Source of the DNA: a bacterium
GTDB lineage: Bacteria; Electryoneota; RPQS01
Assembly: GCA_016721565.1 (NCBI GenBank)
Contig: JADKHW010000006.1
Location: 31,286-95,285, forward strand
Reading direction: 5' to 3'
Length of the DNA: 64,000 nucleotides
Of this stretch, positions 16,607 through 35,161 are shown in pieces. A program made the position numbers and the translations under genes. The stretch's first letter is position 1, and each line of letters begins with the position of its first letter. The notes beneath the pieces are model-generated. The model did not search any database and had not been told where the DNA came from. It saw only the letters and a program-made list of their open reading frames with translations.

Positions 16607-17986
16607 ATGAGCACACTGTCAAATATCCTTGAACAAGGACGCCGCGCGATCCAAGTGCAGCAGCTTGCCATGCAGGTAATTGGACACAACACGTCCAATG
16701 CTGGCACGGTAGGCTATTCGCGCCGTCGCATTGATTTGGGAACCGCGCCTCCGGGAGCTACCGGAGAGTGGGGCGTAGGCGCCGGCGTGGACATCAACGA
16801 TCTCTCTCGCGTCCGTGATCGCTTGCTCGATCAGCAGATTCGCAGTGGTACGACCGTTTCCTCGTACTGGAGTTCGCGCGAAGACCAGCTTGGTCGTATT
16901 GAAGAGTCATTCAATGCGCTCGGTGACAATAATCTTGGGTCCCTTATGGATAAGTTTTGGCAGGGGTGGCAAGATCTTGCTAATGATCCTGAAAGCATGG
17001 CGCCGCGCTATCAAATGCGTGATCGAGCGAGTGCGTTGGTCGGCGGACTTAAGCGTGTCTATGGCGATCTTCAAGGCCAAATTCAGGAGGTCAATCAGCG
17101 TATCGCAGCTGGCGCAGAGCAAGTCAACGAACTTACTTCCGGGATCGCTGAATTAAATGTGCAAATCGTTGCGGGCGAATTAGGGGGTATGGAGGCCTCT
17201 GACCTTAGAGACTCACGCGACCTGATGGTTGAGCAACTTGCTGGTCTCATGGACATTTCCGTGCAAGAGCAGACGGACGGCACTATCCATGTCTACAGCG
17301 GCGGCAACATAATTGTGCAGCGCGACGTCGCAGTTCCGTTGCGCATCGATCAAGTGGAGACCGATCCGAAGAGCCACGTTGTTTTGACTCTGGGAAGTAC
17401 TTCTTCATCATGGAAACCAGCCGGCGGTGAACTTGGTGCGCTCTTTGAACAACGCGATGTTGAATTGCCGAAGGTCATGGCAGAAATGGATCGCTTCGCT
17501 AGTGAATTCAGTGAAGCAGTCAACGCAATTCATGTGCAAGGCTGGGGCTTAAATGGTTCGCAAGCCCAAGAGTTTTTTGCATCGAACGTTCAAGGCGTAA
17601 ATGACCTTGCAATCTCAAATATGATTATCGAGGACGCAGGACGTATCGCCGCATCGGCGAGTGAAAATGCGCCCGGAGATAACTCGCTCGCGTTGGCAAT
17701 AGCAGGCATCCAGAACCAAACAACGAATTCTGGATACTCAGTTGATGAAATGCTTCGTAACATTCAACTTGAGGCTGGAAGTCGCAGATCGTCAGCAATT
17801 CAACAACGTGATGTCGAAGCGGCAGTGCTGGACAATGCAACCAACCGCCGATTTGCAATCAGCGGTGTAAGCTTGGACGAAGAAATGGCGCGCCTCCTTG
17901 AAACACAAAAGGCCTACGAAGCGGCCGCCAAGATCGTACAGACCGTGGACGAAATGATGCAAACTGTACTCAACATGAAGCAGTAA
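16607..17986 (+). CDS. flgK: Flagellar hook-associated protein 1 FlgK
   Basis: N-terminal flg_bb_rod motif (QQLAMQVIGHNTSNAGTVGYSRR) and C-terminal helical region. 459 aa. Confidence 0.85.
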   Translation: MSTLSNILEQGRRAIQVQQLAMQVIGHNTSNAGTVGYSRRRIDLGTAPPGATGEWGVGAGVDINDLSRVRDRLLDQQIRSGTTVSSYWSSREDQLGRIEESFNALGDNNLGSLMDKFWQGWQDLANDPESMAPRYQMRDRASALVGGLKRVYGDLQGQIQEVNQRIAAGAEQVNELTSGIAELNVQIVAGELGGMEASDLRDSRDLMVEQLAGLMDISVQEQTDGTIHVYSGGNIIVQRDVAVPLRIDQVETDPKSHVVLTLGSTSSSWKPAGGELGALFEQRDVELPKVMAEMDRFASEFSEAVNAIHVQGWGLNGSQAQEFFASNVQGVNDLAISNMIIEDAGRIAASASENAPGDNSLALAIAGIQNQTTNSGYSVDEMLRNIQLEAGSRRSSAIQQRDVEAAVLDNATNRRFAISGVSLDEEMARLLETQKAYEAAAKIVQTVDEMMQTVLNMKQ

Positions 17987-17987
17987 T

Positions 17988-18938
17988 ATGCGAGTATCTC
18001 ATCTTCAACAGCATCAGAGTTTTGTGCGCGACGTGGAACAACGTCTGTACAACATGACGCGCATCCAGCAAGAATTGGGCACTGGCAAGCGCATCGAGCA
18101 GCCGTCGGAAGACGTCAATTCGGCAGCGCAAGCTCTCAGTGCTCGATCTCAGCTCGAATCTATTGCGCAGTATCAACGAAACATCGAAAACGGCCAAGGA
18201 TTTGTTTCCGCAGCCGATTCAAAACTGACCTCAATCATTGACTTAGTCAATGAAATCGATGCGCTCGCGCTTTCTGCGGACAACGACCATGTTACTCCAG
18301 AAGATAGGAACTTTGCCGCGCAAGAGATGAATCAGAAGCTTGAATCACTGATGGAATACGCTAACGCTCAATTTGGTGACCGTTATCTATTCGGTGGGCA
18401 TGGAACGACTTCCGCCCCGTTTAACGAAACTCGCGACGCAAACGGGCAAATTACTGATGTTGGCGCAGCGTCCCAGTCAATTGAAGGTCGCATCTATCGC
18501 ATGATCGATGATAAAGAGAACGTCGCTATCAATGTCACCGGCGACCGATTGTTCCAGCCCATCGGTGAAGACAATACCTCAAGTGATCTGTTCTACGTTG
18601 TAAAGAGTTTACGGGACACGATTGCAAACAATAACACACCACCCGAAGGTCAGGAAGATACACTCAGCACGGATGTCTTGCGCGAGAACCTCGACGCAAT
18701 TCGCAACAGAATTGTTGAACAGCAAACTTATGTTGGGTCACTGGGTCAAAGGCTTACAAACAAGCTAAGTGAACTTAAGGCAACCGAAATTGATTGGACG
18801 GATCGTTTGGAAGAGGCGCAAGGTTCGGAGATGACGGATCTCGTCAGCAGATTATCGGTGGAAGAGGGAGTCTACAACGCCCTCGTTGCAATTCAATCAC
18901 GTGTACTTAACCGTTCACTCATAGACTATTTGGGTTAA
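17988..18938 (+). CDS. flgL: Flagellar hook-associated protein 3 FlgL
   Basis: Flagellin-like N- and C-termini ([19 protein letters not shown]). 316 aa. Position after flgK. Confidence 0.8.
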
Positions 18939-18939
18939 G

Positions 18940-19986
18940 ATGTCTAAGCGCGCACTAATCACCGGAATTACCGGACAAGATGGCAGCTACCTTGCCGAAC
19001 TCTTGCTTGACAAAGGCTACGCCGTCTTCGGAATGGTGCGCCGTTCGAGTACCGAAAATTTTGCACGCATTGAGCATCTGCGCGAGCAATTGCAGCTTGT
19101 GCAAGGAGACTTACTCGATGCAAATTCGCTGGAAAAGGCCCTCAAGGCTTCACAGCCGGATGAAATTTACAACTTGGCTGCGCAGAGCTTCGTGCCCGCT
19201 TCGTGGACACAGCCGATTCTGACGGGCGAGTTCACCGCCTTAGGCGTTGCACGCTTATTGGAGGCGATGCGCACTGTTTGCCCCGAAGCGCGATTCTATC
19301 AGGCTTCGTCATCAGAGATGTTCGGAAAAGTGCTCGAAGTTCCGCAAAGCGAAACAACACCGTTCTATCCTCGTAGCCCTTACGGTGTCGCAAAAGTTTA
19401 TGGACACTATATTACTGTGAACATGCGCGAGTCGTACAATCTTTTTGCCGTAAACGGCATCCTGTTCAATCATGAGTCGCCGCGCCGCGGCCTTGAATTT
19501 GTAACGCGCAAAGTCACGAGATCCGTTGCTGCGATCAAGCTTGGGTTGCAGAAGCATCTGGAGCTGGGCAATCTCGATGCGCGTCGTGATTGGGGTTTTG
19601 CGGGTGACTATGTCGATGCGATGTGGCGCATGCTTCAGCAAAGCATGCCCGATGATTTCGTGGTTGCGACCGGCGTGACACACAGTGTTCGAGAATTCGT
19701 CGATGCGGCGTTCGCAACTGTTGATCTTGATCCTGAAGCGCACATCCGGATTCGTGCAGATCTAATTCGCCCGGCCGAAGTTGATCTTTTAGTTGGTGAC
19801 CCAAGCAAGGCGAAGCGAGATTTGAACTGGGCTCCCAAGATTGATTTTCACGGCTTGGTTGAGATGATGGTCCGTGCTGACTTTGACGACCTTTCGGCAC
19901 AAGATCGCAATGCGCTTCCGGCCCAAGTTTCAGTGGCGCGCCGTCAAGTTGCTCGTAATCTAAAATTTAGAAAAGCAAAAGTGTAA
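18940..19986 (+). CDS. gmd: GDP-mannose 4,6-dehydratase
   Basis: [35 protein letters not shown]...NFARIEHL plus [10 protein letters not shown] catalytic YxxxK. Canonical Gmd. Confidence 0.9.
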
Positions 19987-19993
19987 CCGAGAC

Positions 19994-22663
19994 TTGGAAT
20001 CGTTCGCACACACTTTGAACCAACTGGCCGACGAAGTTCAGGCTAATCCTGATCGCTTTGAGAATTCACAGCGACTTTGGGCGCGCTTTTATAACGAGGC
20101 AGCGTTTTCACCCAGCATTCAAGCCGAGTTTGAATTGATTCGTCTTAGTGTGCCTGCGCAATTCATCTTAGCAGGATGGTACGGCTACTTTGATCAACGC
20201 GCTAAAGAACTTCTAGACCGATCTGATCTTTGCGACCTCGATTCTTCGAGTCTGCTTGAACTTCACAATATCAAGCGGCGATGTGCGGCCTTCGACGGGA
20301 CTTTCCGGGCACCTGCAACGCAAACCCGCAGGGCAATTCGACTGAACACATCTGCACTGACTATTGGTGTTGATCTTCGCCCGCTTTCAATTCCATCAAG
20401 CCGTAATCGAGGCATTGGGCGTTACCTTATCAACACGCTCCCGCGTCTTATCGCAAGAGCAGGGCGACACAAATTCGTGTTGTTGACCGAACCGGGCGAA
20501 AAGCGAGATGAGGAGCTACTCAGTCTCTTCAGCCGTAATGATCTCATATTTCGCGACTTTTCGCTTGGTTGCGATCACGATCTCGATTTATTCCTGCTTT
20601 CTGATCCCACTCCTATGCTGACAGGGAAGCGGCTTGCCGACCTGCCGGTTACACAATGCGCGTGGATGTCTATTGTGTACGATTTTATTCCGCTCGAGTA
20701 TCCCGAGCTTTACCTGCGTGGAAGCGACCAACTTATTGATGAATATCTTGGCAACTTTGAACTCATTGCTGAGAGGTGTCAGGCAGTATTCCCGATATCG
20801 CGTTACGTTGCAAATCAATGCGAGGTTTTGTTGAACTTTGCGTCGGAACGTGTCATTCCTATCTTTGGCGGAGTTGATGAGAGTTTCTTTGAAGTATCTT
20901 CAGCTTCAACGCTGCGTGAGTATCCGGAACCTTACTTCCTATATGTTGGCGGCGCTGACGCGCGCAAGAACCTTGCCGGATTGGTCAAAGCATTTGCAGT
21001 GGCAAGCTCCGAAATGCCTGCGGAGTGGAAGCTTGTCTTGGTTGGAGAAATGAACTCTGACAAGACGGCCAAGATGCTGCGCGATATGCATCTCGAAAAC
21101 TACATCGGTCGAGTTGTTGGCCTTGGCGGAATCGATGATGCGCGGCTACGCGGTCTGTACGCTAATGCATTGGCAACGGTATTTGTTTCCCATAGTGAAG
21201 GATTGGGTCTTCCCGCGCTCGAAGCAATGGCAACAGGTTGCCCTGTCATTGCGTCGAAGACAACAGCTTTAGGCGAGACTGTTGGTTCAACCGGCATTCT
21301 TGTTGATCCGGCATCAACTACCGAAATTGCGCAAGGCATGCTTCGGATTGCGAAGGATTCGTCACTGCGCAACGATCTTGCAGTTCGCGGTCCCTTGCAT
21401 GCGCGCAAGTGGTGCTGGGATGATGTTTCTGCCTGCCTGCTAAACGGCATTGAGAAGTTTGCGTGCCGAGAAGTTCACTCTGTGTCGCGCAAACGTCGCA
21501 TGCGGGTTGCCATGATGAATCGCGAAAACGTGTGGAGTGCGCTGGGTGGCGACAGCCGCATCATGCTGCAAATGCAAGAGGCTGCCGCGCTTGCAGATGT
21601 CGAAGTGTATTTCCCATCTTCTCTCGATCAGGCATCGACAGCGGACTTAATTCACTTCGTGAACATGACGTTGCCCGCTCCGCTTAAGGATGCGACAAAC
21701 TTCTCGCAGCAGCGCAATATCCCGCTGTTGGTAACGACGCTCTATGAAGACTGGCCGCAATATCTGAATGCGTCCCATCAAGCGTTTAGTATTTACCGCG
21801 CGTTTATGGCTGGTCAGAGTTCACATTTGAGCATGGTAACCGCTCTTGATAATTTGCGGGCGTCACAGCCAGCACCTCAATTAGACGTGGCGGAGAGTTT
21901 GAAGCACGCAACTCTACTTTTAGCTTGTGCAGAGTCTGAAGCAATGCGACTACAGCAAGACTATCCTTATCTCGAAGACCGCATTCTTGTCGTTCCATTC
22001 GAAGTTAACATCCCATTGCCGACCGTGCAGCGAATGAACGATTCCCTTCGAAACGCATTGGGTTTTGACGAATTCGTGCTATGCATTGGCCGTCTCGAAA
22101 CTCGAAAGAACCAACTTGCCCTGCTGACCGCACTCCATGACGTTGATATCCCAATTGTGTTCGCCTCAGGTAGCTACACTCCGCAGCCCGTTTACTCGCA
22201 AGCTGTGAGAGCGTGGCGCCGCAAAGCGCCTGTGAAGTTTGTGGATCGCATGCCGTGGCACCTTATGTCAGCGCTGATTCGAAGCGCATCCGCGCATGTT
22301 TTACCAAGTTTCTACGAGCTGCCAGGGCTGGTGCACCTTGAATGTGCAGCTGCGGGAATTCCCATTGTTGCAGGCGAGTGGGGTGCAATCTCTGACTATT
22401 TGCCGAGATCAGTGTTCCATGCATGCGACCCACTCAATCTTGAGTCAATTCGTTTGGCGACGCTAAATGCACTCAACGCTCCGCTTGCTCCGTCGGCCGC
22501 TGACATTGCAATGAGTTATACACGGGAGCGTTTAGCAAGCTGTTTGATAAACAGTTATGAGCGCGCACTCATAGAATCAGCGCAAAATGTAAATCGCAGT
22601 AAGCAATACGTATATAGGCCACTTAGGCCGGAAGCCACCGGAGGAATCCATGCCGCTGTCTAG
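19994..22663 (+). CDS. Large glycosyltransferase with two GT4 (GT-B, family 1-like) modules
   Basis: First module: YVGGADARKNLAGLVKAF ... EGLGLPALEAMATGCPVIAS. Second module: CIGRLETRKNQLALLTAL ... ECAAAGIPIV. Confidence 0.75.
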   Translation: MESFAHTLNQLADEVQANPDRFENSQRLWARFYNEAAFSPSIQAEFELIRLSVPAQFILAGWYGYFDQRAKELLDRSDLCDLDSSSLLELHNIKRRCAAFDGTFRAPATQTRRAIRLNTSALTIGVDLRPLSIPSSRNRGIGRYLINTLPRLIARAGRHKFVLLTEPGEKRDEELLSLFSRNDLIFRDFSLGCDHDLDLFLLSDPTPMLTGKRLADLPVTQCAWMSIVYDFIPLEYPELYLRGSDQLIDEYLGNFELIAERCQAVFPISRYVANQCEVLLNFASERVIPIFGGVDESFFEVSSASTLREYPEPYFLYVGGADARKNLAGLVKAFAVASSEMPAEWKLVLVGEMNSDKTAKMLRDMHLENYIGRVVGLGGIDDARLRGLYANALATVFVSHSEGLGLPALEAMATGCPVIASKTTALGETVGSTGILVDPASTTEIAQGMLRIAKDSSLRNDLAVRGPLHARKWCWDDVSACLLNGIEKFACREVHSVSRKRRMRVAMMNRENVWSALGGDSRIMLQMQEAAALADVEVYFPSSLDQASTADLIHFVNMTLPAPLKDATNFSQQRNIPLLVTTLYEDWPQYLNASHQAFSIYRAFMAGQSSHLSMVTALDNLRASQPAPQLDVAESLKHATLLLACAESEAMRLQQDYPYLEDRILVVPFEVNIPLPTVQRMNDSLRNALGFDEFVLCIGRLETRKNQLALLTALHDVDIPIVFASGSYTPQPVYSQAVRAWRRKAPVKFVDRMPWHLMSALIRSASAHVLPSFYELPGLVHLECAAAGIPIVAGEWGAISDYLPRSVFHACDPLNLESIRLATLNALNAPLAPSAADIAMSYTRERLASCLINSYERALIESAQNVNRSKQYVYRPLRPEATGGIHAAV

Positions 22664-24200
22664 TACATCTTCACAAAAAGACGTCTCGATCATCATTCCT
22701 GTTTTTAACCGCTGCGACTTGACTGAGCGCTGCTTAGAGTCAATTGCGCGTAGTGCGAGCCACGCAAGCTACGAAGTCATTGTTGTGGATAATGCTTCCA
22801 CGGACAGGACCGCAGAATTGCTGGCCGACATTGATGGAGATATTACTGTAATCACGAATAAGACCAATGAAGGGTTTGCCTCCGCGTGCAATCGAGGTGC
22901 CCGTCTCGCTAACGGCGAGTATCTTTTGTTTCTAAACAACGATACCGAAGTCGCGGACGATTTCCTCGATAAGTTGATTCACGCCGCCGAGCAAACATCC
23001 AGTGCCGGTGCTGTGGGTTGCAAGCTGCTGTTCCCTGACGGCAAGACTCAACATGCAGGCATCGCATTCAACGAGGAAAACACTCCTTATCACATCTTTC
23101 ATGGATTTCCTGCGGATCATCCTGCGGTGAACACTTCGCGCGAAATGGCTGCGGTCACTGCGGCATGCATGTTGATAAAGCACGCGACATTTGAGTCCGC
23201 AGGTAGATTCGATACGTCATATCGCAATGGATTTGAGGATGTTGATTTATGCTTAAAGCTCAAGCAAAGGGGCTACAAGAACATCTATTGTGCTGACTGT
23301 GAAATCACACATCACGAAGAATCCAGCGAAGGTCGAAAGGTGCACGATGCCGAAAATATGCTACTCTTCGCGACGCGTTGGGGCGGCACTTCACTTCAAG
23401 ATGACGAGAAATACCTTGCTGCATATGGTCTGACCATTCGCTGGGGAAAGAATGGTGGCCGCTATGAAAACGTTGCGCCAACCACCACAACGGATACCTC
23501 TTTGGAGTCACTTGACGGTCAAACTCTGCTCGATCTCGCACAGAAGAAATACCTTGAAGGCAAGCATGACGAAGCAGCTCAAGTATTGAACCGAATTGTC
23601 GCCAAGCATTTGACAATTGGCAAAGACGACGAATTTGAAACGTGGCAACTTCTTGGCAATTGCATGGCGCGTCTGAACCGCGCAGAAGATGCTGAAAAAG
23701 CCTACTTGCAGGCGGCTGAAGCGAATATGGAATCCGAGCGTCCCTTCTTGGGTTTGGGTTCTGTCGCCATGCTGCAAGAAAACTGGACTGCCGCTCAATA
23801 CGGGTTCCTGGCAGCTTTGTCGCGCAACCCGAACACGATGCGCGCCGAGTTTGGTCTTGGGATCAGCCTTGCCGCGCGCAATCAGCATGAGAATGCGGTC
23901 AAGCATTTCAAGCGTGTGGTGTCACAAGACCCACGCAACAGCGAAGCTGTGTTCTATCTGTATCGTTCAGCGATGGAGACCTCGCAGCCGCAAGTGGCTA
24001 TTGCCGCGCTGTCACAATATCTCGAGAATTGCCCCGAAGATGTTGATTTCTGGTTCCACCTGTCCGGAGCATTATGGAAAGCTGAGTCGCTCGACGACGC
24101 GATCGACGTCTGCAAGAAAGTACTCGAAATGAACCCACAGCATGTCGACGCTCAGAGCACGTTGCGTTACATGGAACAACGTGTTGCCGCAACGGTCTAA
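22650..24200 (+). CDS. GT2-family glycosyltransferase with C-terminal TPR repeats
   Basis: VSIIIPVFNRCDLTERCLESI...EVIVVDNASTD, DxD-like FLNNDTEV, then TPR-like helical repeats. Confidence 0.8.
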   Translation: MPLSSTSSQKDVSIIIPVFNRCDLTERCLESIARSASHASYEVIVVDNASTDRTAELLADIDGDITVITNKTNEGFASACNRGARLANGEYLLFLNNDTEVADDFLDKLIHAAEQTSSAGAVGCKLLFPDGKTQHAGIAFNEENTPYHIFHGFPADHPAVNTSREMAAVTAACMLIKHATFESAGRFDTSYRNGFEDVDLCLKLKQRGYKNIYCADCEITHHEESSEGRKVHDAENMLLFATRWGGTSLQDDEKYLAAYGLTIRWGKNGGRYENVAPTTTTDTSLESLDGQTLLDLAQKKYLEGKHDEAAQVLNRIVAKHLTIGKDDEFETWQLLGNCMARLNRAEDAEKAYLQAAEANMESERPFLGLGSVAMLQENWTAAQYGFLAALSRNPNTMRAEFGLGISLAARNQHENAVKHFKRVVSQDPRNSEAVFYLYRSAMETSQPQVAIAALSQYLENCPEDVDFWFHLSGALWKAESLDDAIDVCKKVLEMNPQHVDAQSTLRYMEQRVAATV

Positions 24201-26958
24201 AATACTCGTTATTCAATGGGCACGATTGGGCGATTTGTTCCATTCGCGTCCACTTTGTGCATTCGCGTTGCGAGAGTATTGTCCCGCAGACGTGACTCTT
24301 TGCTGTGATGAACGCTATGAGTCTGTCGTTCGCGAGTTCCCAGAAGTCGATGACGTGCTGCCCGTGAACCTTGGCAACTTCACTGCTCAACTTAGAACAG
24401 ATGCATCGTTGCCAGAAGCCCTTGCGGATCTGGTCGATCTCCAGCACCTCTTGCAATCCTATGACGTCGTTATCAATCTGACAAATCACGCGTCAGCAAT
24501 TCAGTTTGCGCAAACGGTGGATGCATCGATAAAACTTGGTTACGGTTTTGACTCAACGGGTGCTCTCGGTGAATTTGAGAAAGCAGTCCAAAACAAGCAA
24601 TCTCGCAAACATGTCGCGACCATTTGGGCGTCCTTAATTACCGCAAACTCCGACCTTGTTCCGCTTATGACCGTTGGAACCGATGTCACAATGCAAGCGG
24701 AGCGGATGGTTGCAATTGTGTGTGACGCTGGAAGTAAAGAACGCAGTTTGTCGGCTGAGACAATCGAGCAAATAATCGAGACTGTGTGCAAGCGTGGTGT
24801 AACAAATGTTGTATTGTTAGGCTCGACCACGTTTCCTCCAATTACAAAACACTCATGTGTTACAGATATGCGAGGCTTGACTTCACTTTTCGAGCTGAGA
24901 ACATTGTTAGGCAATGCTGAATTCGTAATAGGCCCCGACACTGGCGCGCTTCACTTTGCAGCCGCACTCGGAAAGCAAGTTCTTGGAATCTACCTTGACG
25001 GTGCATCACCTGACGTTACCGGGCCGCTTACCTCAATGGCTCATTCAGTTGTTGCGGCCGTTCAAGACGAAGTATTTCAAAGCGATTTGCGTTCAACCAT
25101 GAGTGATTGGCTTGACAGTGCTTCAACTCGACTACAATTGGCGCCGGCTATTTCGCATGCGAGTCATTGCCCATTGTCAATAGTCATCGCCGAGTATGGC
25201 CAAACACATTACACGGACAAGCTGCTTAAATGCTTAGAGGCCTGTACGTTGCCTGTCGGCAGTGAGATTATCGTAATGAGCAGTCGTCTTGACAAATTCG
25301 ATTTGCAGATGGCTATGGCTCGACACAATATTATTAAAGATGCGACAGGTAAGAAACGAAGTTTTGCTGAAGTCTGCAACCGCGGGGCTCTGCTTGCACG
25401 CGGTGAGTGGCTGCTGTTTCTTAACGATGACTGTGAAATCGAGACTTCTTCATTCGCTACTCTTTGGAAATCTCGCGCAACCAACACCGTTGTCGGTCCC
25501 ATTCTAAGAAACTGGGATGGAACAATTCAATCCGCAGGGTTTTCCTATGATGGAAACGAAGTACGTGAAGTGTGTCCTACTGGCCTCAATTCAAAAGGCA
25601 CGATTCACGGTGTTAGTGCCGCAGCGATGCTCGTTAGTCGAAATGCGTTCTATTTTCTGGGTGGATTCGACACAGGTTTTCAAAATGGCTACGAAGATGT
25701 CGATCTATGCCTGCGTGCTCAGATGTGTGGACTTTCTATAAAGGTCGCTGGTTGTAATGTTACACATTTCAAGGGTTCATCTCCAGAGCGTTTTCAGTGT
25801 GACAATGAGAATCTCAATCGCCTGAATCAGAGGTGGCGCGCAAAGAAGTTGCGCAAGAATGAATCATCGCAGCTTTCACAATCTGCAACTCCATTGGTGA
25901 TTTTCTCGGATGAGTTGCAGGAAAGTGCTGGAGCGTTGTTGAGATGGGTTGATCCACTAAAGCGCTGCGGACTACGTTTGGGCAAGGATTTTAGCTGGCT
26001 GAATACCGCTAATACCGACGAAGGGTCGGCGCGAGTTGCACTCCAAAATGCGTTGGCAGTCATCGTGTTTCGCGCAGTGTCAAATGACTCATTACGCGCG
26101 CTGATCCTGAACTGGCAAGCGGAGCATAGCGGACCGCTTTGCTACGACTGTGACGATCTCCTGATCGGAAGATTCCCGAAAGGATCGCCCCGGGAGCAGG
26201 CGCGGCGAGCATATGAAAACGGAGTTTGCGAAATAGTGGCACATGCCGACATTGTGACGGTGCCTAACAAGTATCTGCTTGAACAGTTTGCCGGAACTCC
26301 GGCAATGCAAATTGTGATCAACACTGTGCCGTTGCAAATCCACCTTGCCACATGCGCCAAACGGCACGCTTTCAAAGAGTTTCGCATAGGTTATGCCGGT
26401 AGCAGAGTACACCAGACTGATTTTGCATTTGTCGCACCTGCACTTGAACAACTACTCGATGCCGATGAGTCAATTAAATTTTATTGGTGGGGCGCGCATC
26501 CCGCAGGATTGAGCAATCATCCACAAGTACGCAGAGGCGGCGATTGGCTATCGGACTATTCGTCGCACGTTCGCCGGATTCAAAATGCAAATATCGATTT
26601 GTGGATTGCACCACTTGGCGATGCTCCCCACAATTCAATGCGAAGCGCAATCAAGGCATTCGAGTACATCGGCTGTGGCGCTCCTTGCCTCTTCTCTAAC
26701 GTAGATCCGTTTCGACGTGAACTTGGCTCCGTTACTCCTCATTTACTTGTTGAAAACACAACGGATGCCTGGTCAGAAGCCATTGAGCATTGGCGTACCG
26801 CGGATGAGCTGTCGACATACCACTCCGAATTGGCAAGCGCGCGCGTGCTAATCGCGCAATTGTCGCAAGATAGAACATCTTATCGTCAGTTCATAAAAAT
26901 GTTGCGGCAACATTCACCTTCATACCTGAAGCGCACACGCGGCGAACTTGTTGTATGA
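24142..26958 (+). CDS. Multidomain glycosyltransferase (GT9 heptosyltransferase-like N-domain + GT2 + C-terminal GT-like domain)
   Basis: N-terminal ILVIQWARLGDLFHSRPL (GT9 signature). Middle EVCNRGALLARGEWLLFLNDDCEIE ... YEDVDLCLRA (GT2). 938 aa. Confidence 0.7.
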   Translation: MSTLRARCVTWNNVLPQRSKILVIQWARLGDLFHSRPLCAFALREYCPADVTLCCDERYESVVREFPEVDDVLPVNLGNFTAQLRTDASLPEALADLVDLQHLLQSYDVVINLTNHASAIQFAQTVDASIKLGYGFDSTGALGEFEKAVQNKQSRKHVATIWASLITANSDLVPLMTVGTDVTMQAERMVAIVCDAGSKERSLSAETIEQIIETVCKRGVTNVVLLGSTTFPPITKHSCVTDMRGLTSLFELRTLLGNAEFVIGPDTGALHFAAALGKQVLGIYLDGASPDVTGPLTSMAHSVVAAVQDEVFQSDLRSTMSDWLDSASTRLQLAPAISHASHCPLSIVIAEYGQTHYTDKLLKCLEACTLPVGSEIIVMSSRLDKFDLQMAMARHNIIKDATGKKRSFAEVCNRGALLARGEWLLFLNDDCEIETSSFATLWKSRATNTVVGPILRNWDGTIQSAGFSYDGNEVREVCPTGLNSKGTIHGVSAAAMLVSRNAFYFLGGFDTGFQNGYEDVDLCLRAQMCGLSIKVAGCNVTHFKGSSPERFQCDNENLNRLNQRWRAKKLRKNESSQLSQSATPLVIFSDELQESAGALLRWVDPLKRCGLRLGKDFSWLNTANTDEGSARVALQNALAVIVFRAVSNDSLRALILNWQAEHSGPLCYDCDDLLIGRFPKGSPREQARRAYENGVCEIVAHADIVTVPNKYLLEQFAGTPAMQIVINTVPLQIHLATCAKRHAFKEFRIGYAGSRVHQTDFAFVAPALEQLLDADESIKFYWWGAHPAGLSNHPQVRRGGDWLSDYSSHVRRIQNANIDLWIAPLGDAPHNSMRSAIKAFEYIGCGAPCLFSNVDPFRRELGSVTPHLLVENTTDAWSEAIEHWRTADELSTYHSELASARVLIAQLSQDRTSYRQFIKMLRQHSPSYLKRTRGELVV

Positions 26959-28124
26959 CAAATCGCTTTACGACACGCACAACGCCGTCTGGCCATGTAA
27001 CTGCTTTACACAACTGCGGAACATTGATTCATAGTGCACAAGACCCGCTTGCCGAAGCTGAGGCAATTGCATCGTTGCTTGCGCCTGAAGAGCATGAGTT
27101 GTTTGTAGTAATCGGTAATGGACTTGGATACCTGAGTAGAGCATTGAGCCGACGCAGCCTTAAGTGTGTAACTATTGAGCTATTCGCGGATCTTTTCGAA
27201 CTATCCTTGGAAACTAATTGCAATGCGGCAGACAAACTCTGTGGGAACAGCGAAGAGTTGATGACTATTTTAGGTCAATACGGTTACGGAGCCAACATTG
27301 TTATACTACCGTACATCATGTCGCTTCGTTCAGAACTTTCGAATGACTTGCGATCACTTGTCGAAGAGCTTCAAGTAACGCTACAATCCCAGCGCGTTTA
27401 CAAGTGTATGATTGACCGAAATATTGAGACAAATCGGGCGCAGTTCTCAATGCTGGAAAGGCTGTATATACAAGAGCAGCAATCCTGCAAACTCGCAATT
27501 GCAGTTGGCTCCGGCCCAACGCTTGATGCATGCATGCAGATTCTTGCAGAGAGGCGCGATGAATTGCTACTCGTTGCAGCTTCCGGTGCGGTTCCAGTTC
27601 TTAGCAAGAACGGAATTCGTCCGGACTGGATCGTGGCAATGGAGGCGCGCAACAGCATTGTAACCGATTTAGAAATGGCTGATCACGCAAGCAAGGTGCT
27701 GGTCTTTCCTTGGACGCACCCATCTGTGCTAAACGATGATTGCCTCACACTTGTCGCTGCAAACGAGTCCGACGGCATTTGTACAAGCGGAGGTTCAACA
27801 GGCCTGGCCGCGACAGACTTTGTCTCAATGCTAACGCCTGGCGCAATTTTCATGATAGGCATGGACATGTGTGATAGCCAAGGTGAGTACTCCGCAGGAG
27901 TTGCGCGCACAACTGCAAATGGCACAATCGGTGCATCGAAATTCAACATCATGCGCGCGGCCGCGAGTCGCTGGGCGTGTTTGCAGGACAAACGAGTATA
28001 TCACATGGTAATGCCGGGCGGTGCACAAATAAGTGGTGCGCATAAGTTGTATCCAATGGAACTTGCAACGGCTTTGCAACGCGAAAGTAATGAAATTCCT
28101 GAACACTTGGAAGCACACGTATGA
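26955..28124 (+). CDS. Hypothetical protein, possibly DUF115/Maf-like flagellin-glycan modification protein
   Basis: 389-aa ORF inside the glycosylation island. Rossmann-like VIGNGLGYL. No firm family call from sequence alone. Confidence 0.35.
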   Translation: MTNRFTTRTTPSGHVTALHNCGTLIHSAQDPLAEAEAIASLLAPEEHELFVVIGNGLGYLSRALSRRSLKCVTIELFADLFELSLETNCNAADKLCGNSEELMTILGQYGYGANIVILPYIMSLRSELSNDLRSLVEELQVTLQSQRVYKCMIDRNIETNRAQFSMLERLYIQEQQSCKLAIAVGSGPTLDACMQILAERRDELLLVAASGAVPVLSKNGIRPDWIVAMEARNSIVTDLEMADHASKVLVFPWTHPSVLNDDCLTLVAANESDGICTSGGSTGLAATDFVSMLTPGAIFMIGMDMCDSQGEYSAGVARTTANGTIGASKFNIMRAAASRWACLQDKRVYHMVMPGGAQISGAHKLYPMELATALQRESNEIPEHLEAHV

Positions 28125-29425
28125 TTTCATTACGCAAAAATTCTATTGATACGGCCACGCCGCAGCTCAAAATTGTTGTCCCAACACCGCTTTACGGCGG
28201 TAGTTTGCCCATCGCGTATCATGCGGCGGACGCATTTATCGAGCTTGGCCATACGTGCGACGTACTCCGATTAGACGAGCAGCACTCGCTTTTTGAATCA
28301 TTGGGTACGGATGTTGAGGATAATGCGGGCAAAAGGTTAAAGAGTCGTTTTGCGGAGCTGCTTGCGGATTATGTCGTTGAGCGTGCCATTCAAACTAAAG
28401 CTGACTTGGTCTGGTACACCGCGCAATCACCGGTGTCTATCGCTTCGCTGAGAAGATTACACGATGCCGGTATCAAGGCAACATTGTGGTTCGTAGAGGA
28501 CGTGCGAAGATTTGATTACTGGAAGCATATCGTACGCGAGTTTGATCTTGTGTTTTCAATTCAGGTTGGCCCGGCCGCTGATGCGATCCGCCAAGCTGGT
28601 GCTCGTCAAGTCGTCTATTTGCCCATGGCGGCAAACGTCGCCATTCACCGGCCCATGATGCTCTCGCACGAGCATCAGCAGCGCTACGGATCGCAAGTCT
28701 CGTTTGTCGGAGCAGGCTATCCTAACCGCGTAGCGCTCTTTACCGAGCTTGAATTGGCCAATCTTAAGTTGTGGGGAAATGATTGGCCAAGTGCCTGGAC
28801 GGAACGCTTGCAGGAGTCCGGTCGCAGAGTCTCAACGGAAGAGACTGCGGTGATCTACAACGCTTCTGCGATCAACCTAAACATTCACAGCGCTGTCAGC
28901 GGTAATGTTTTAGAGTGTGGTGATTTTGTAAATCCTCGAACGTTTGAGATTGCCGCATGCGGAGGCTTTCAGATTGTCAATCGCCAATCACCACTATGTG
29001 ACCTGTTTGGCGAATCGGAACTCTGCATTGTTGACGATGAAGCTGAGCTTAAGAGTGCATTAACACATTTCACCAGCAACCAGCGCGCTCGCAATAAGAT
29101 GGCAGAAGCCTCGAGGTTACGAGTCATGCGCGAGCACACCTATGTGCATCGAATGAAAACCGCGCTCAATTATGTGTTTCATTCGACTATCCAGGCACCG
29201 AGGATGGCTGCTGTTGCGACGATGGCAGATCTGAAGGTCGCCGCGCACGGCGATCAGGATATGCAGAAGTTCCTCGCGCAATTTACGGACACTGAGCCGG
29301 CGACTCTGCAAAAGCTTGTCGACAAAGTGTCCAAGGATCAGCATACCCTGTCGCGCGCGGAACTGATCGTCATGCTCATGCACGAGTTTCGCAATTGGGG
29401 AGTCGAAAAAGGTGTTATTCAATGA
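28121..29425 (+). CDS. CgeB-like glycosyltransferase (DUF3880 + GT1-like C-domain)
   Basis: YLPMAANVAIHRP ... YPNRVALFTELELANLKLWG ... FEIAACGGFQIVNRQSP. This resembles the spore-maturation CgeB family. Confidence 0.6.
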   Translation: MISLRKNSIDTATPQLKIVVPTPLYGGSLPIAYHAADAFIELGHTCDVLRLDEQHSLFESLGTDVEDNAGKRLKSRFAELLADYVVERAIQTKADLVWYTAQSPVSIASLRRLHDAGIKATLWFVEDVRRFDYWKHIVREFDLVFSIQVGPAADAIRQAGARQVVYLPMAANVAIHRPMMLSHEHQQRYGSQVSFVGAGYPNRVALFTELELANLKLWGNDWPSAWTERLQESGRRVSTEETAVIYNASAINLNIHSAVSGNVLECGDFVNPRTFEIAACGGFQIVNRQSPLCDLFGESELCIVDDEAELKSALTHFTSNQRARNKMAEASRLRVMREHTYVHRMKTALNYVFHSTIQAPRMAAVATMADLKVAAHGDQDMQKFLAQFTDTEPATLQKLVDKVSKDQHTLSRAELIVMLMHEFRNWGVEKGVIQ

Positions 29426-30981
29426 GTCGTCGGGCTTTGGTCATCGCCGTCACCAGACTTGGCGATATCATCCAAACCGAGCCGATGGTTCGTGCGTTGA
29501 AAGCTGAGGGGCGCTTTGATAAAGCAACGGTTCTTGTCGAACGATCTTTCGCCGACATCGCAGGTAGAATAACTAGCGCTGATGAACTGAAGTGCATTGA
29601 CTTTGAAGCCATTCTTGGTCGACTTGACCGATCCTGTGCCGCGCTTCCTATGCGAGAATATCTTGCGCTTGCTGATTGGCTTCTGCGCAACAGTTTCGAT
29701 ACTGTATATAACGTCACGCACTCGAGGCCGTCGATGATGCTGGCTGCATTGGCAAGTCATGAAACACAAGGTGTGACGCTCGACCAACAAGGGATGCAGG
29801 TTGTCAATAATCGCTGGCTTCAGTACTTCTTCGCGACAAATTTGGCGCGTCCGTGGTGTTCTTTCAATTTGGTTGACATTTATGTCAATGCCGTTGACCC
29901 ATTAGTCGCACAGTCAGAACGCAAACCCCAATTGGTTTCAGGCGGCGCGCGTGACAAGAGAACTTTGAAATTCAATGATGGAGAGGTGTTGCTTCATGTT
30001 GGAGCCTCTAAGTCTGACAAGCAGTGGCCTCTTGAGAAGTTTGTTGTGCTGAGTCAATATTTGCTTGACCGTGGTTTGAGTGTGACACTACTCGGCGGTG
30101 GAAAGTCCGAGGCGATCAGCCGTGCATTTCCTGCGCACAAGAACTTCCAGGACTTGCTCGGAATGACGTCCATTGGTGACTTGTTTGACCTTTGTCAAAA
30201 CGCAAGCCTTTTGGTGTCTGCTGACTCCGGTCCCGTTCACGTTGCTGCCGCGTGTGACCTGCCAATCATCGCCATTGAAGGCGGATCGGCGCACGGCTTT
30301 GAGACGGCGCCTTATAAGGTAGGTTCAATCGTCATTCAGCCCCACCTTGACAGAGTGATGTCCCGCAGACCGACCAAGCATGCAACCTCTGCTTCTTCTG
30401 ATTTGGTTAGCGTGGAAACAGTCATTTCGGCGATTGACTTCTTAGCGGGTGGATCGGATCAAATCACTTCATCGCCGCAGTGCACGGTTTATGAAACGAT
30501 AAACGGTGAAAATGTACCTGGATTAGATTTGCGTGCAATTAGCGGAAGCAATTCAGAGTACGAAGAGTGGCAGCAGAGGCTGAGACGATTCTGGTGGCGC
30601 GTTGGCGGAGGCCACTCGTCCTGCAATAGTCAACCAGCCAACGACTTGACATCCTGCGCTATGGCTTCGGCAAAGGCAGCAAGACTCATTTCGCAAGCCG
30701 GAAACAATTTCACGTCGCTTGAAGAAAGTGCTGCAAGTTTGAGCGCAACGGAGCACTCCCTAACTAAAATGATTGAAGCTTATCCACCGCTGCATCACTT
30801 GAACTTTTTTCTGCAAATTGCGCGCTCAAGTGTTCATGGAGAATTGCCGCATGAACAGGCTCAAGAACTTGAAAAGCTCTACGATGATGTCGCGGAGGCA
30901 GCAGCCGAGTTGGAGCTAACTCCGAGTCATCGATCAGTTAAGAAACAGTATAATTCAAATAGTGAGAAGGTACCAGCATGA
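29395..30981 (+). CDS. GT9-family (ADP-heptose heptosyltransferase-like) glycosyltransferase with C-terminal extension
   Basis: RRALVIAVTRLGDIIQTEPMVRALK ... LLHVGASKSDKQWPLEKFVVL ... DSGPVHVAAACDLPIIAIEG. Strong GT9 pattern. Confidence 0.75.
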   Translation: MGSRKRCYSMSRRALVIAVTRLGDIIQTEPMVRALKAEGRFDKATVLVERSFADIAGRITSADELKCIDFEAILGRLDRSCAALPMREYLALADWLLRNSFDTVYNVTHSRPSMMLAALASHETQGVTLDQQGMQVVNNRWLQYFFATNLARPWCSFNLVDIYVNAVDPLVAQSERKPQLVSGGARDKRTLKFNDGEVLLHVGASKSDKQWPLEKFVVLSQYLLDRGLSVTLLGGGKSEAISRAFPAHKNFQDLLGMTSIGDLFDLCQNASLLVSADSGPVHVAAACDLPIIAIEGGSAHGFETAPYKVGSIVIQPHLDRVMSRRPTKHATSASSDLVSVETVISAIDFLAGGSDQITSSPQCTVYETINGENVPGLDLRAISGSNSEYEEWQQRLRRFWWRVGGGHSSCNSQPANDLTSCAMASAKAARLISQAGNNFTSLEESAASLSATEHSLTKMIEAYPPLHHLNFFLQIARSSVHGELPHEQAQELEKLYDDVAEAAAELELTPSHRSVKKQYNSNSEKVPA

Positions 30982-31592
30982 AGATATTCATGAACGGTCT
31001 AGAACTTGGCCGGGAGGCAACCGGTGAAATGGAAGTGGGGCAGGTCTTGTCCGAGATCCAGAGTGAAATCCATGCCGGTGGGAAAATTCTGCTTGGCGCA
31101 AGCATTGACGGTGTCGCGATCGAAAAAGGCTTTCGTCGTCGCCGTCAACTCGCAACGCCGGTGACCCGAGTCAATAAACTTGAGTTGATGATTCAAGATC
31201 CCGAGGCAGTTTCGGAGCAAATCTTAAAGGACTCTCTGCAAATCTATCGGCAACTTCAACATGAGGTACCTGTTCTGGCGACTCGCTTTCGTATGGGCGA
31301 TGAGTTCACCGCAAATCAGCAACTCGCGGACGTGTTAGATCGTCTCACGCTGTCGCTAAAAGGTTCCTCAATGGCGCTAAAACAGCGGCCCTTAAATTCA
31401 AATTTACAAGGAAGATTGAACCAAGCAGGCGGCGAATTGATGCCTGTTCTGGATCGCGTATTGGCCGCTCAAACTGCCGGAGATTACACCGCTTTGGCCG
31501 ACCAGCTTGAATACAAACTTCCAACAGCGCTTAAGAATTGTTTCGACTGCATGTTGCAAGCAACTGAAACTCAAACTGTAGCCCCGAGATAA
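30978..31592 (+). CDS. Hypothetical protein (last gene of glycosylation block)
   Basis: 204-aa ORF, no recognisable motif. Confidence 0.4.
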   Translation: MKIFMNGLELGREATGEMEVGQVLSEIQSEIHAGGKILLGASIDGVAIEKGFRRRRQLATPVTRVNKLELMIQDPEAVSEQILKDSLQIYRQLQHEVPVLATRFRMGDEFTANQQLADVLDRLTLSLKGSSMALKQRPLNSNLQGRLNQAGGELMPVLDRVLAAQTAGDYTALADQLEYKLPTALKNCFDCMLQATETQTVAPR

Positions 31593-31609: not shown

Positions 31610-31637
31610 TTAAAGCTTTGCGGTGAGTATTCCGATA
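31610..31637 (+). promoter_or_regulatory. sigma28 (FliA) promoter upstream of MerR-like gene/flagellin 1
   Basis: TAAA-N16-TCCGATAA against the consensus TAAA-N15-GCCGATAA. It sits about 40 nt upstream of the 31678 ATG. Confidence 0.55.
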
Positions 31638-31677
31638 ACCAGAGTGTAAGGAATCTGAATCATCTGGAGTACTTGAC

Positions 31678-32052
31678 ATGAAGCATGAAGAAATCTTGAC
31701 CGTGCCCCGCGCACGGTCTCCAAAGGCACCAAAGCTATACTCAATCGGGCAGGTTCACGCCATCACCGGTATTCCCAAGCCGACAATCCGTTACTGGGAA
31801 AAAGAGTTTGAAAGCTATTTGGAACCGCTGCGCACAACTGGCAATCAACGTCGCTACGACGACAAGTCCATTGCAGATCTGGAAAAGATCAACTATCTGG
31901 TGAAGGTTCAGGGCTACACCCTGGACGGCGCGAAGCGCAAACTTGAACTGCTGCGCAAAGTTGACGTTGAACGTCAGCACAGCAACGACCCGATGGCGGA
32001 ACTGGCCCGCGCAATGTCAGACTATCTACTTAAGAAGTTGTCCCGCGATTAG
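31678..32052 (+). CDS. MerR-family HTH transcriptional regulator
   Basis: YSIGQVHAITGIPKPTIRYWEKEF is the typical MerR N-terminal HTH. 124 aa. Confidence 0.7.
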   Translation: MKHEEILTVPRARSPKAPKLYSIGQVHAITGIPKPTIRYWEKEFESYLEPLRTTGNQRRYDDKSIADLEKINYLVKVQGYTLDGAKRKLELLRKVDVERQHSNDPMAELARAMSDYLLKKLSRD

Positions 32053-32081: not shown

Positions 32082-32981
32082 ATGAGTACACGCATAAATC
32101 ACAACCTGCTATCCCTCGGCGCTCAGCGCTCGGTGTGGACGGCACAGAACGACCTCGATTCGGCCGTTCAGCGATTGTCCAGCGGACTTCGCATCAACTA
32201 CGCGTGGGATGATCCCACCGGACTCGGAATCAGCGAGCGCCTTCGTTCCTCGATCTCAGGCATGGTCGAAGCCGAGAAGAACGCGAACTACAACATCAAT
32301 ATGATGCAGACTGCCGAAGGCGCACTGGCCGTCATTGATGAAAAGTTAATTCGCATGCGAGCCATCGCTATTCAAGCTGCTAACGGCGTCTTAACAACAT
32401 TGGATCGTCAAGTCGCGAACGTCGAATTCCAACAGCTCAAGAGCGAAATGGACCGTATCGCGCACACAGCGAACTATAATGGTTATCGCTTGCTGGATGG
32501 TTCGCGCTCAGCCGAAACGATGAGTACCGACCCAACTTTGGCGCTCGGCTATAATGCAGTCACAACTGCTGCTGATTCCGGATCAATTAAGTTTCACATT
32601 GGTGAAAACAACAATGTCGGCCAAGATTTCTACTACATCAATATCGCCGGGATGACGGCCTCCGATCTGGGTGTAGCAGGTCTCGATGTCTCGAATACAG
32701 CATCAGCGCAGGACTCAATTGAAACATTGATCGCAGCTATCAACTCGAAGGACACGACCCGTACGTTCTTGGGTTCAATGGTCAGCCGCCTTCAAAACAC
32801 AATCTTGAATCTTAAGATTCAGCGCGAAAACGCCACTGCCTCTGAATCGCAAATTCGTGATGCCGATTTTGCCGAAGAAATGTCAAACTTCACGCGTTCG
32901 CAAATCTTGATGCAAACCGGCGTCTCAATGCTTGGTCAGGCCAATCAGATTCCGAACATCGTTGCACAATTGGTTGGATAA
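32082..32981 (+). CDS. fliC: Flagellin (copy 1, 299 aa)
   Basis: Flagellin N-terminus (MSTRINHNLLSL...RLSSGLRINYAWDDPTGLGISERL) and C-terminus (FTRSQILMQTGVSMLGQANQIPNIVAQLV). Confidence 0.9.
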   Translation: MSTRINHNLLSLGAQRSVWTAQNDLDSAVQRLSSGLRINYAWDDPTGLGISERLRSSISGMVEAEKNANYNINMMQTAEGALAVIDEKLIRMRAIAIQAANGVLTTLDRQVANVEFQQLKSEMDRIAHTANYNGYRLLDGSRSAETMSTDPTLALGYNAVTTAADSGSIKFHIGENNNVGQDFYYINIAGMTASDLGVAGLDVSNTASAQDSIETLIAAINSKDTTRTFLGSMVSRLQNTILNLKIQRENATASESQIRDADFAEEMSNFTRSQILMQTGVSMLGQANQIPNIVAQLVG

Positions 32982-32987
32982 TCTTGA

Positions 32988-33356
32988 ATGAGTGATTTTT
33001 CGGAACAGCCTACTACCAATCTTAGACAGTCATCGGACGATCTGCCGGGGAAACTCCGGCAGATCTCCGATGCTCTCTGGGATGCAGCGCAACGCAAAGA
33101 CCTGAACGAGGTCAATGCGCTGCTCGACAACCGCCAGGAGATTCTGGAACTGTTAGCCGATGTCAAGCCGCTCGACGCTCGCCAGCGCCGGGAACTCATG
33201 GCGATTCAGGCCGCTGATAAATACTTAATGCGGCAGTTAGACAACGAACTTGCTTGGTTGGATCGCCGTCTAAAGGGTGTCAATCTGCGTCGTTCTGCTG
33301 CTACAGGATACCGAGCTAACGGCCCACGCAAAACTCACATGACGAGAACCGGTTAA
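32988..33356 (+). CDS. Hypothetical small helical protein (FlaG/FliT-like by position)
   Basis: 122-aa ORF between flagellin 1 and the amidotransferase. No diagnostic motif. Confidence 0.3.
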   Translation: MSDFSEQPTTNLRQSSDDLPGKLRQISDALWDAAQRKDLNEVNALLDNRQEILELLADVKPLDARQRRELMAIQAADKYLMRQLDNELAWLDRRLKGVNLRRSAATGYRANGPRKTHMTRTG

Positions 33357-35134: not shown

Positions 35135-35161
35135 TTAAGTTCGTTACTGGGTCGCCGATAA
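35135..35161 (+). promoter_or_regulatory. sigma28 (FliA) promoter upstream of flagellin 2
   Basis: TTAA-N15-GCCGATAA, with a perfect -10 element, about 90 nt upstream of the ATG at 35249. Confidence 0.6.

Follow-up and report, generated by a model that had tools for sequence, protein, structure and literature searches.

Glycosylation of flagellin is common, and flagellin glycosylation islands lie between flgL and the flagellin gene in Pseudomonas aeruginosa, P. syringae, Aeromonas and Burkholderia. To our knowledge, an action on flagellin has been demonstrated for only a few transferase families, namely Maf, FlmG and the GT2 type with GmaR and FgtA as examples, and how flagellin glycosyltransferases recognize their substrate is, as far as we know, only now being worked out. 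Glycosyltransferase family 9 (GT9) is otherwise known mainly from the synthesis of the lipopolysaccharide (LPS) core, where the canonical acceptors are 3-deoxy-D-manno-oct-2-ulosonic acid (Kdo) for WaaC and heptose for WaaF. Here we describe a block of eight genes with two GT9 modules, situated between flgL and the first of two flagellin genes on contig JADKHW010000006.1 (assembly GCA_016721565.1); all positions refer to the analysed stretch of 64 kb, called the window in the following. We consider it likely that this block (18940-31592) provides the glycosylation half of a flagellar filament module inherited vertically, with flagellin as its most likely target.

In the closest systems described, recognition of flagellin is a matter of helical domains. 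FlmG binds flagellin via its N-terminal tetratricopeptide repeat (TPR) domain (PMC7591256). The docking unit of Maf-1 is a fused C-terminal TPR domain, and the short Maf-2 relies on a separate four-helix-bundle protein, GlfM, which is FliS/FliT-like in HHpred (bioRxiv 2023.12.03.569772). Among the autotransporter heptosyltransferases Aah and TibC, the hallmarks of TibC are a beta-barrel preceding an atypical four-stranded N-lobe, a Cys4 iron finger inserted in the C-lobe and a beta-hairpin thumb for dodecamer assembly (PMC4358343). In variable region 1 of enterobacterial flag-2 loci, GT9 genes have been predicted in silico to serve flagellin glycosylation (De Maayer et al. 2020, PMC6993521). 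Our literature search, incomplete in coverage, returned no experimentally characterized GT9 flagellin glycosyltransferase and no heptosylated flagellin made by one.

The window resembles the flag-2 loci in that GT9-family genes are embedded in a flagellar locus, but it stems from a different phylum, and the flag-2 GT9 genes are strain-variable and known in silico only, with no bundle or tri-modular fusion described (PMC6993521). With the Pseudomonas-type islands it shares the slot, multi-domain soluble glycosyltransferases, a nucleotide-sugar gene and the expectation of sequential cytoplasmic O-glycosylation. Unlike those islands, the cassette is a lineage-wide syntenic core and not strain-variable, and its repertoire comprises two to three GT9 modules, a CgeB-like enzyme and a short Maf. 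Glycosylation genes between flgL and flagellin, like the predicted GT9 genes of flag-2 loci, were already known; new are the lineage-wide fixed cassette with nine glycosyltransferase-type modules, a GT9 family that has a private helical bundle and occurs in flagellar loci only, and a fusion of three modules, GT9, GT2 and GT-B.

Gene content and operon structure

An open reading frame (ORF) scan combined with Pfam and NCBIfam searches delineated a single, uninterrupted flagellar filament module on the + strand (16607-38594). It belongs to a large cluster with fliM, fliN, fliP, fliR, flhB, flhA, flhF and fliA upstream and the flagellins, fliD and fliS downstream. The features on which the argument rests are as follows (lengths in amino acids, aa).

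16607-17986, + strand: flgK, hook-filament junction gene at the operon head (FlgK_D1, E=8.7e-59; Flg_bbr_C)
17988-18938, + strand: flgL, hook-filament junction gene at the operon head (Flagellin_N, E=1.8e-19)
18940-19986, + strand: gmd, GDP-mannose 4,6-dehydratase (TIGR01472, 435 bits, cut-off 415; PF16363, E=1.8e-131)
19994-22663, + strand: 889-aa protein with two GT4-type (Glycos_transf_1) catalytic modules (PF00534, PF13692)
22650-24200, + strand: 516-aa GT2-TPR protein (PF00535, E=3.9e-31; multiple TPR families)
24142-26958, + strand: 938-aa fusion of GT9, GT2 and GT-B-like modules (PF01075, 50.4 bits, cut-off 22; weak PF10111 and PF13524)
26955-28124, + strand: 389-aa Maf-like protein, MptE-like/DUF115 (PF01973, 63.3 bits, cut-off 34.6)
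28121-29425, + strand: 434-aa CgeB-like GT-B glycosyltransferase (DUF3880, PF12996, E=2.5e-11; Glyco_trans_1_2, PF13524, E=1.4e-29)
29422-30981, + strand: 519-aa GT9 enzyme (PF01075, 81.0 bits, cut-off 22)
30978-31592, + strand: 204-aa accessory protein (p204), last gene of the operon (no match in the local Pfam and NCBIfam searches)
31611-31638, + strand: sigma28-like promoter, TAAA-N16-TCCGATAA (read from the sequence)
32082-32981, + strand: flagellin 1, 299 aa, presumed acceptor (Flagellin_N, Flagellin_C)
35249-36148, + strand: flagellin 2, 299 aa, presumed acceptor (Flagellin_N, Flagellin_C)

The eight genes of the block are close-packed: gmd, its sole nucleotide-sugar gene, begins 1 nucleotide (nt) past flgL, the junctions after gmd measure +7, -14, -59 (or -20), -4, -4, -4 and -4 nt, and the sigma28-like promoter follows ~20 nt downstream. 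Such spacings and overlaps are the pattern of a translationally coupled operon. Scans for sigma70 promoters and terminators inside the block gave no more sites than expected by chance and hence no evidence of internal transcription units. An earlier note on this DNA, made from the letters and their ORFs, had outlined the same region; its genes and domain classes were recovered here, and the coordinates agree with the distance it gave between flgL and gmd, with overlaps of a few nucleotides and with an end just before the sigma28-driven flagellin region. All seven genes that it listed are present, but the 204-aa ORF at 30978-31592 had been overlooked.

We predicted no transmembrane segment in the eight block proteins, the highest Kyte-Doolittle 19-residue window being below 1.6 in all of them. 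The block proteins are thus soluble and cytoplasmic: Gmd, nine glycosyltransferase-type modules distributed over six proteins, and one accessory protein. By Pfam content, the block encodes no flippase, oligosaccharyltransferase or polyprenyl-phosphate glycosyltransferase, and waaA, lpx, ligase and polymerase genes are likewise absent from it. A set of soluble proteins lacking flippase, oligosaccharyltransferase and polyprenyl-phosphate transferase fits stepwise cytoplasmic O-glycosylation before export.

The two GT9 modules

Both GT9 modules are genuine, as the earlier note had claimed, the PF01075 threshold of 22 bits being well exceeded by the 519-aa protein (81.0) and by the N-terminus of the 938-aa fusion (50.4). 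The true start of the 519-aa protein is ATG 29422 (the ORF first listed spans 29395-30981), and NCBI holds a 100% identical protein of 519 aa (P0001). In an alignment of 20 sequences of this family (A1), the motifs T-R-x-G-D15, H-x-x-A-S-x-x-x-K200-x-W-P and D268-S-G-P-x-H273 are invariant. In the hidden Markov model (HMM) alignment, D15, K200, D268 and H273 correspond to D13, K192, D261 and H266 of E. coli WaaC, of which we take D13 to be the catalytic base and the other three to contact ADP-heptose. The module in the 938-aa fusion retains the GD and DTGALH motifs and lacks KxWP, which occurs only in the 519-aa enzyme; across the fusion family (alignment A2), WARLGD, GPDTGALH, NDD, YEDVD and FYWWG are invariant.

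Profile and fold comparisons agree on the nearest neighbours. The HMM of the 519-aa family matched the Veillonella GT9 structure 3TOV (1e-26), WaaF (5e-19) and WaaC (3e-13). A structure model was made for the 519-aa enzyme only (AlphaFold; predicted local distance difference test, pLDDT, 87.5; predicted template-modelling score, pTM, 0.89); Foldseek aligned it with 3TOV, 1PSW, 2H1H, 2GT1 and 6DFE at E-values of 1e-12 to 1e-9, with target-normalised template-modelling scores (TM-scores) of 0.61-0.74 for 3TOV, WaaF and WaaC. The GT-B fold, the catalytic Asp and the donor motifs are thus those of the LPS-type enzymes. Unlike them, the 519-aa GT9 has an additional C-terminal hairpin and helical bundle, a private N-lobe segment and an exclusively flagellar context. 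The N-lobe segment, W-x2-YFFATNLARPW-x3-NLVD-x-Y-x-N, is invariant in the 20 sequences at 30-80% overall identity, which points to a conserved acceptor different from that of LPS synthesis. Scores against the NCBIfam equivalogs are far below the cut-offs (TIGR02193, 65.8 versus 185.3 bits; TIGR02195, 58.7 versus 134.6; TIGR02201, 41.6 versus 170.2), and in every locus the GT9 genes are surrounded by flagellar genes and other glycosyltransferases, an LPS core gene neighbourhood being found in none. Judged by sequence, the flagellar GT9 proteins are not orthologs of WaaC, WaaF or WaaQ. According to the earlier note, a place within LPS-core clades, together with a flagellin that is unglycosylated or carries only pseudaminic-acid-type sugars, would speak against the heptose- or deoxyhexose-modified flagellins that it thought possible. 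On the first point, the nearest relatives are indeed WaaC, WaaF and 3TOV, yet the scores stay under the equivalog cut-offs.

The kinship with Aah/TibC that the earlier note had implied is not supported. It is contradicted by single-sequence searches, by the family HMM, which gave no TibC match even at E<=10, and by fold, TibC (4RB4) ranking 50th with a target-normalised TM-score of 0.41, behind UDP-GlcNAc 2-epimerases. The 519-aa model opens with Rossmann strand beta1 at residue 4, with the catalytic Asp at 15, and shows no N-terminal beta-barrel; its C-lobe has no Cys4 finger or other Cys cluster, and the beta-hairpin thumb of TibC is missing as well. KSB1 orthologs do carry a CxxC-x5-C-x4-C motif, which we considered as a TibC-like iron finger and rejected because generic LPS-type GT9 proteins (P0041-P0043) share it in the same place. 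What the 519-aa enzyme may have in common with Aah/TibC is the chemistry, i.e. transfer from ADP-heptose to protein Ser/Thr, and the cytoplasmic timing before export; unlike Aah/TibC, it lacks the beta-barrel, the iron-Cys4 finger and any detectable sequence similarity, and no autotransporter substrate is encoded nearby. Taken together, the conserved motifs indicate that both GT9 modules are most likely catalytically intact GT-B enzymes of the LPS-heptosyltransferase and not of the Aah/TibC type.

In a crude neighbour-joining tree of GT9 domains, calculated without support values or WaaC/TibC references, the fusion-type module groups with a free-standing 388-aa GT9 from a related locus (L023, see below). 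This is a weak hint that the flagellar GT9 domains fall into two paralogous lineages, one of the 519-aa type and one of the fusion/388-aa type. A GT2-GT9 fusion from a Stellaceae metagenome-assembled genome (MAG; P0067) has a genomic context that is not flagellar and was uninformative.

A family-specific C-terminal domain

According to the model, the 519-aa protein consists of a GT-B catalytic domain (residues 1-345) followed by a beta-hairpin and a four-helix bundle of long helices (~350-500). A profile of this C-terminal domain found 31 clusters among 1.84e9 representative protein clusters, where the domain always follows GT9 in proteins of ~515-560 aa, except for short fragments and one protein of 1029 aa. 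By this distribution, the bundle is private to the 519-aa GT9 family. With hhalign against our local alignments of FliS, the FliT-like ORF and the 204-aa protein, probabilities reached 0.4-1.2% only. Thus, the fold class of the domain is established, but homology to flagellar chaperones is not. By analogy with GlfM, we propose that the bundle docks flagellin.

Conservation of the cassette across related loci

We found 39 close homologs of the 519-aa GT9, all in metagenomes or MAGs assigned to Calditrichaeota, KSB1 or labelled "bacterium", and a scan of one genome per GTDB species yielded 19 loci of the same kind. Gene-by-gene tblastn searches in Calditrichota, KSB1 and unclassified MAGs showed that nearly every locus with enough contig shares one gene order: (flgL)-gmd-2xGT4-GT2/TPR-GT9/GT2/GT-B-Maf-like-CgeB-like-GT9-p204, continued by MerR-flagellin-(FliT-like)-AsnB-flagellin-fliD. 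In more than 20 loci the cassette occupies the same slot, bounded by flgL and flagellin. Identity of the cassette proteins ranges from 30 to 89%, with the glycosyltransferases going down to ~30% and the flagellins at 73-96%. Variations on the theme occur in KSB1, where the 2xGT4 and GT2-TPR proteins are fused into single proteins of 1281-1311 aa and the GT9 is duplicated in tandem (536-544 aa plus 554-555 aa; L004, 8383-11668; L005, 8407-11665).

The GC content of 0.48-0.52 inside the block hardly departs from the 0.50-0.54 of its flanks. Flat GC together with lineage-wide synteny argues against a horizontally acquired island. Of the earlier description as an island fused to flgKL, the glycosylation gene set at a flagellar locus is retained, its placement being conserved across the lineage, but not the inserted element. 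From sequence comparison, the cassette has long belonged to the flagellar regulon of Calditrichota/KSB1-type bacteria and has been passed on vertically.

Two deviating loci are of special relevance for the GT9 modules. L023, from a Caldithrix-like MAG, is a reduced variant that encodes, from flgL to flagellin, a GT9 of 388 aa, a CgeB-like protein of 615 aa, GT9 proteins of 566 and 632 aa, a CgeB-like protein of 410 aa and a p204 homolog; the CgeB-like gene has thus been both retained and duplicated. The next-nearest relative outside the 519-aa family (P0040, 25% identity) belongs to L026, a flagellar locus of another lineage with the order flagellin, fliD, fliS, TPR protein, 207-aa protein and two GT9 genes. 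There, on a contig ending just downstream, the two GT9 proteins are the sole recognisable glycosyltransferases beside fliD/fliS. Both loci retain GT9 genes and lack an MptE-like domain. With this gene content, a GT9 or CgeB-like enzyme must act on protein there, and a flagellin-directed role for GT9 is plausible from the sequence data. L023 and L026 provide the best support for protein-directed GT9 enzymes, which would be an independent invention and not relatives of Aah/TibC.

As an aside, the 632-aa GT9 of L023 (9998-11896) contains tandem repeats (TDRNVYPPGSM, TDTEIRPP) between its catalytic domain and a C-terminal helical region.

Proposed function and alternative explanations

In the scheme that we infer, the block enzymes would be produced along with the hook-associated proteins from the flgKL operon, just before sigma28 turns on flagellin synthesis, and would build an O-linked oligosaccharide stepwise on Ser/Thr residues of both 299-aa flagellins in the cytoplasm before export. 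Flagellin would be targeted by helical docking modules, namely the TPR array of the GT2 enzyme and the fused four-helix bundle of the 519-aa GT9, and the remaining modules would extend the glycan. The GT9 modules would most likely transfer heptose from ADP-heptose to flagellin or to a sugar already present on it, and Gmd could feed a GDP-6-deoxyhexose precursor to some of the GT4 or GT2 modules. We propose docking of the GT2-TPR and GT9-bundle proteins on flagellin because FlmG, Maf-1 and Maf-2/GlfM need helical docking. As in these systems, catalytic domains in the window go along with helical modules, including a GT2 enzyme with TPR and a Maf-2-like short DUF115 protein; unlike in Maf-2/GlfM, the partner of the bundle is a GT9 and not a Maf, and pseudaminic or legionaminic acid genes are not found in cis. 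By analogy, the window would thus present the same building blocks in new combinations (GT2 plus TPR, GT9 plus bundle, Maf-2-like DUF115, free FliT-like ORF).

Several points weigh against flagellin glycosylation by this set of enzymes. All sources of the cassette are uncultured MAGs, for which glycosylation of flagellin is a prediction from the genes. In its catalytic domain, GT9 is similar to enzymes that naturally act on lipid-linked Kdo or heptose and not on protein. The 64-kb window contains no gene for ADP-heptose or ulosonic-acid biosynthesis, and Gmd has no partner reductase in the block. Finally, the flagellins, which the earlier note had correctly given as 299 aa and called Ser/Thr-rich, are enriched only mildly, with 16.7% Ser+Thr overall and ~20% in the central 78 residues, compared to 10-15% in neighbouring proteins and 21% in FliD.

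Part of this evidence would suit a cassette that acts on a lipid-linked glycan (LPS core or O-chain, capsule, sheath) or on FliD or the hook, its link to the flagellar genes being no more than a common operon. In fold and motifs, GT9 is of the LPS type, the GT4 and GT2 modules are generic polysaccharide enzymes, and FliD is richer in Ser/Thr than the flagellins. Yet the cassette keeps, in more than 20 loci, a position behind flgL and ahead of flagellin that flagellin glycosylation islands classically occupy, for instance in Pseudomonas. Moreover, Maf-type and TPR-glycosyltransferase proteins are hallmarks of flagellin modification, the GT9 scores lie far under the LPS equivalog cut-offs, and neither membrane segments nor genes for WaaA, Lpx, a ligase, a flippase or a polymerase are present; we regard this explanation as very improbable.

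The other two alternatives keep flagellin as the acceptor and differ in the step assigned to GT9. The 519-aa enzyme could be the initiating transferase, which places heptose directly onto Ser/Thr of flagellin as a functional analogue of Aah/TibC of independent, LPS-type GT9 origin, with the other glycosyltransferases extending the glycan or acting in parallel. This alternative, which sharpens the idea of the earlier note, is suggested by the fused helical bundle unique to its family, by the extreme conservation of the N-lobe acceptor region, and by L023 and L026, which lack Maf, GT2-TPR and GT4 partners, so that the first sugar must come from GT9 or a CgeB-like enzyme. But in L023 it could be the CgeB-like enzyme that initiates, none of the features of bacterial autotransporter heptosyltransferases was found, and the Maf-like and GT2-TPR proteins of the window are initiators with better precedent, so that we consider an initiating GT9 possible but doubtful. 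If GT9 enzymes act as chain extenders instead, the block could perform LPS inner-core chemistry on protein: the Maf-like protein would attach Kdo or another 2-keto-3-deoxy ulosonic acid to Ser/Thr and GT9 would add heptose, both drawn from housekeeping CMP-Kdo and ADP-heptose. The Maf-type DUF115 gene indeed lies between the two GT9 genes, Kdo and heptose are the canonical acceptors of WaaC and WaaF, a locus that has no ulosonic-acid or heptose genes of its own would fit the use of LPS precursors, and production of LPS is implied by LptF/G, encoded in the window. Maf enzymes are able to move Kdo onto Ser/Thr of flagellin, although the observation comes from heterologous hosts and was described as promiscuity towards the donor (bioRxiv 2020.06.03.131540). 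The donor sugar in the window organism follows from family precedent only, and L023 and L026, which retain GT9 without any MptE-like domain, mean that a Kdo-heptose route cannot be the general mechanism. On balance, we think this route unlikely.

Returning to the stepwise glycosylation of flagellin, the system is compact and evolutionarily fixed, with an LPS-type GT9 apparently re-targeted to protein through fusion of a helical docking domain. A bolder and at present doubtful proposal would be that GT9 with its private four-helix bundle, derived from LPS heptosyltransferases independently of Aah/TibC, represents a third class of flagellin glycosyltransferases beside Maf and FlmG, which, with the Maf-like protein, decorates the filament throughout a phylum-level lineage with an inner-core-like glycan of heptose (or Kdo-heptose). 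If true, this would be a new enzyme class for protein O-heptosylation, of a second independent origin after Aah/TibC, and a natural case of LPS-core chemistry reused on protein; it would also explain unannotated GT9 genes in other flagellar loci. If flagellin were unmodified, the block would be just another uncommon glycan cluster of uncultured bacteria.

Further genes of the block

Two stretches of the 889-aa protein, about residues 310-463 and 635-801, are matched by both PF00534 and PF13692. The 516-aa protein combines a GT2 domain (residues 13-230) with a C-terminal TPR array (~290-510) and is, by analogy, a candidate flagellin-docking glycosyltransferase. The modules of the 938-aa fusion extend over about residues 19-320 (GT9), 345-570 (GT2) and 585-920 (GT-B-like), the match of the latter to Glyco_trans_1_2 (PF13524) being weak. 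The true start of this ORF is probably GTG 24181, which gives a protein of 925 aa that matches a 74%-identical homolog (P0044).

The 389-aa Maf-like protein, identical to an NCBI entry named DUF115 domain-containing protein, consists of an N-terminal GxGLGY module and a MAF_flag10/DUF115 domain with no C-terminal domain, which is the architecture of Maf-2. Its best PDB match is weak, Maf 5MU5 with E=0.0096 over 50 residues, and the PseD profile reached an E-value of 1.5e-6 yet only 27 bits at a cut-off of 670. Relatives outside the clade are DUF115 proteins of ~629 aa with 23-26% identity; the genomic context of one of them (P0127) is not flagellar and was uninformative. Within the 64-kb window we found no gene of a pseudaminic, legionaminic or other CMP-ulosonic acid pathway. 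The GxGLGY Rossmann-like module, which has a weak likeness to motif I of S-adenosylmethionine-dependent methyltransferases, behaves as a mobile unit: it occurs with the MptE-like domain in the window (26955-27400), with a CgeB-like glycosyltransferase in L023 (6458-7000) and on its own, as the 207-aa protein, in L026 (5475-6098).

The 204-aa protein is present in all loci that extend to its position, including the reduced L023. Its orthologs match PF27299 (TP0873_N) and, weakly, DUF8042; a literature search on TP0873 gave no match. To us, the N-terminus (MKIxxNG...) looks beta-grasp-like. Azoreductase matches in a PDB search were judged spurious.

Flagellins, promoters and neighbouring genes

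Beyond the block, we identified the following features.

9311-10078: fliA-type sigma-factor gene (Sigma70 regions 2, 3 and 4)
31678-32052, + strand: MerR-family protein, 124 aa (PF13411, E=3e-19)
32988-33356, + strand: FliT-like helical ORF, 122 aa (PF05400, E=0.0012, below cut-off)
33361-35109, + strand: AsnB-type glutamine amidotransferase (PF00733, E=3.9e-67; TIGR01536, 326 bits)
35136-35161, + strand: sigma28-like promoter, TAAG-N14-GCCGATAA, upstream of flagellin 2
36263-38173, + strand: fliD (FliD_N, FliD_C)
38175-38594, + strand: fliS (ORF and ortholog recovery; Pfam FliS recorded on the orthologs)

The first sigma28-like promoter (31611-31638) precedes the genes for MerR, flagellin 1, the FliT-like ORF and AsnB. 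CCGATAA occurs three times on the + strand of the window, two of the three sites being upstream of flagellin genes. Flagellin 1, which starts 490 nt downstream of the block, and flagellin 2 are 84% identical. The MerR gene is located between the promoter and flagellin 1 and ends 29 nt before the latter; with 66-100% identity in related loci it ranks with the best-conserved genes there, comparable to the flagellins, and its product could regulate the flagellin operon. The free-standing FliT-like ORF adjoining flagellin 1 is conserved and was detected only in the closer loci; it could be a candidate chaperone or a GlfM-type adaptor for the short Maf-like enzyme. AsnB lies between the two flagellin genes in every related locus spanning the site, with the exception of the reduced L023, and may amidate a carboxyl group of the glycan.

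The window holds some further genes that deserve mention. Besides LptF/G, it encodes two proteins with the C-terminal sorting domain of type IX secretion (Por_Secre_tail; 50303-52282 and 59535-60887), in keeping with a source in the FCB superphylum (Calditrichota-like), and an HDOD/HD-domain protein (3010-3864) within the flagellar export operon, between fliP and fliR.

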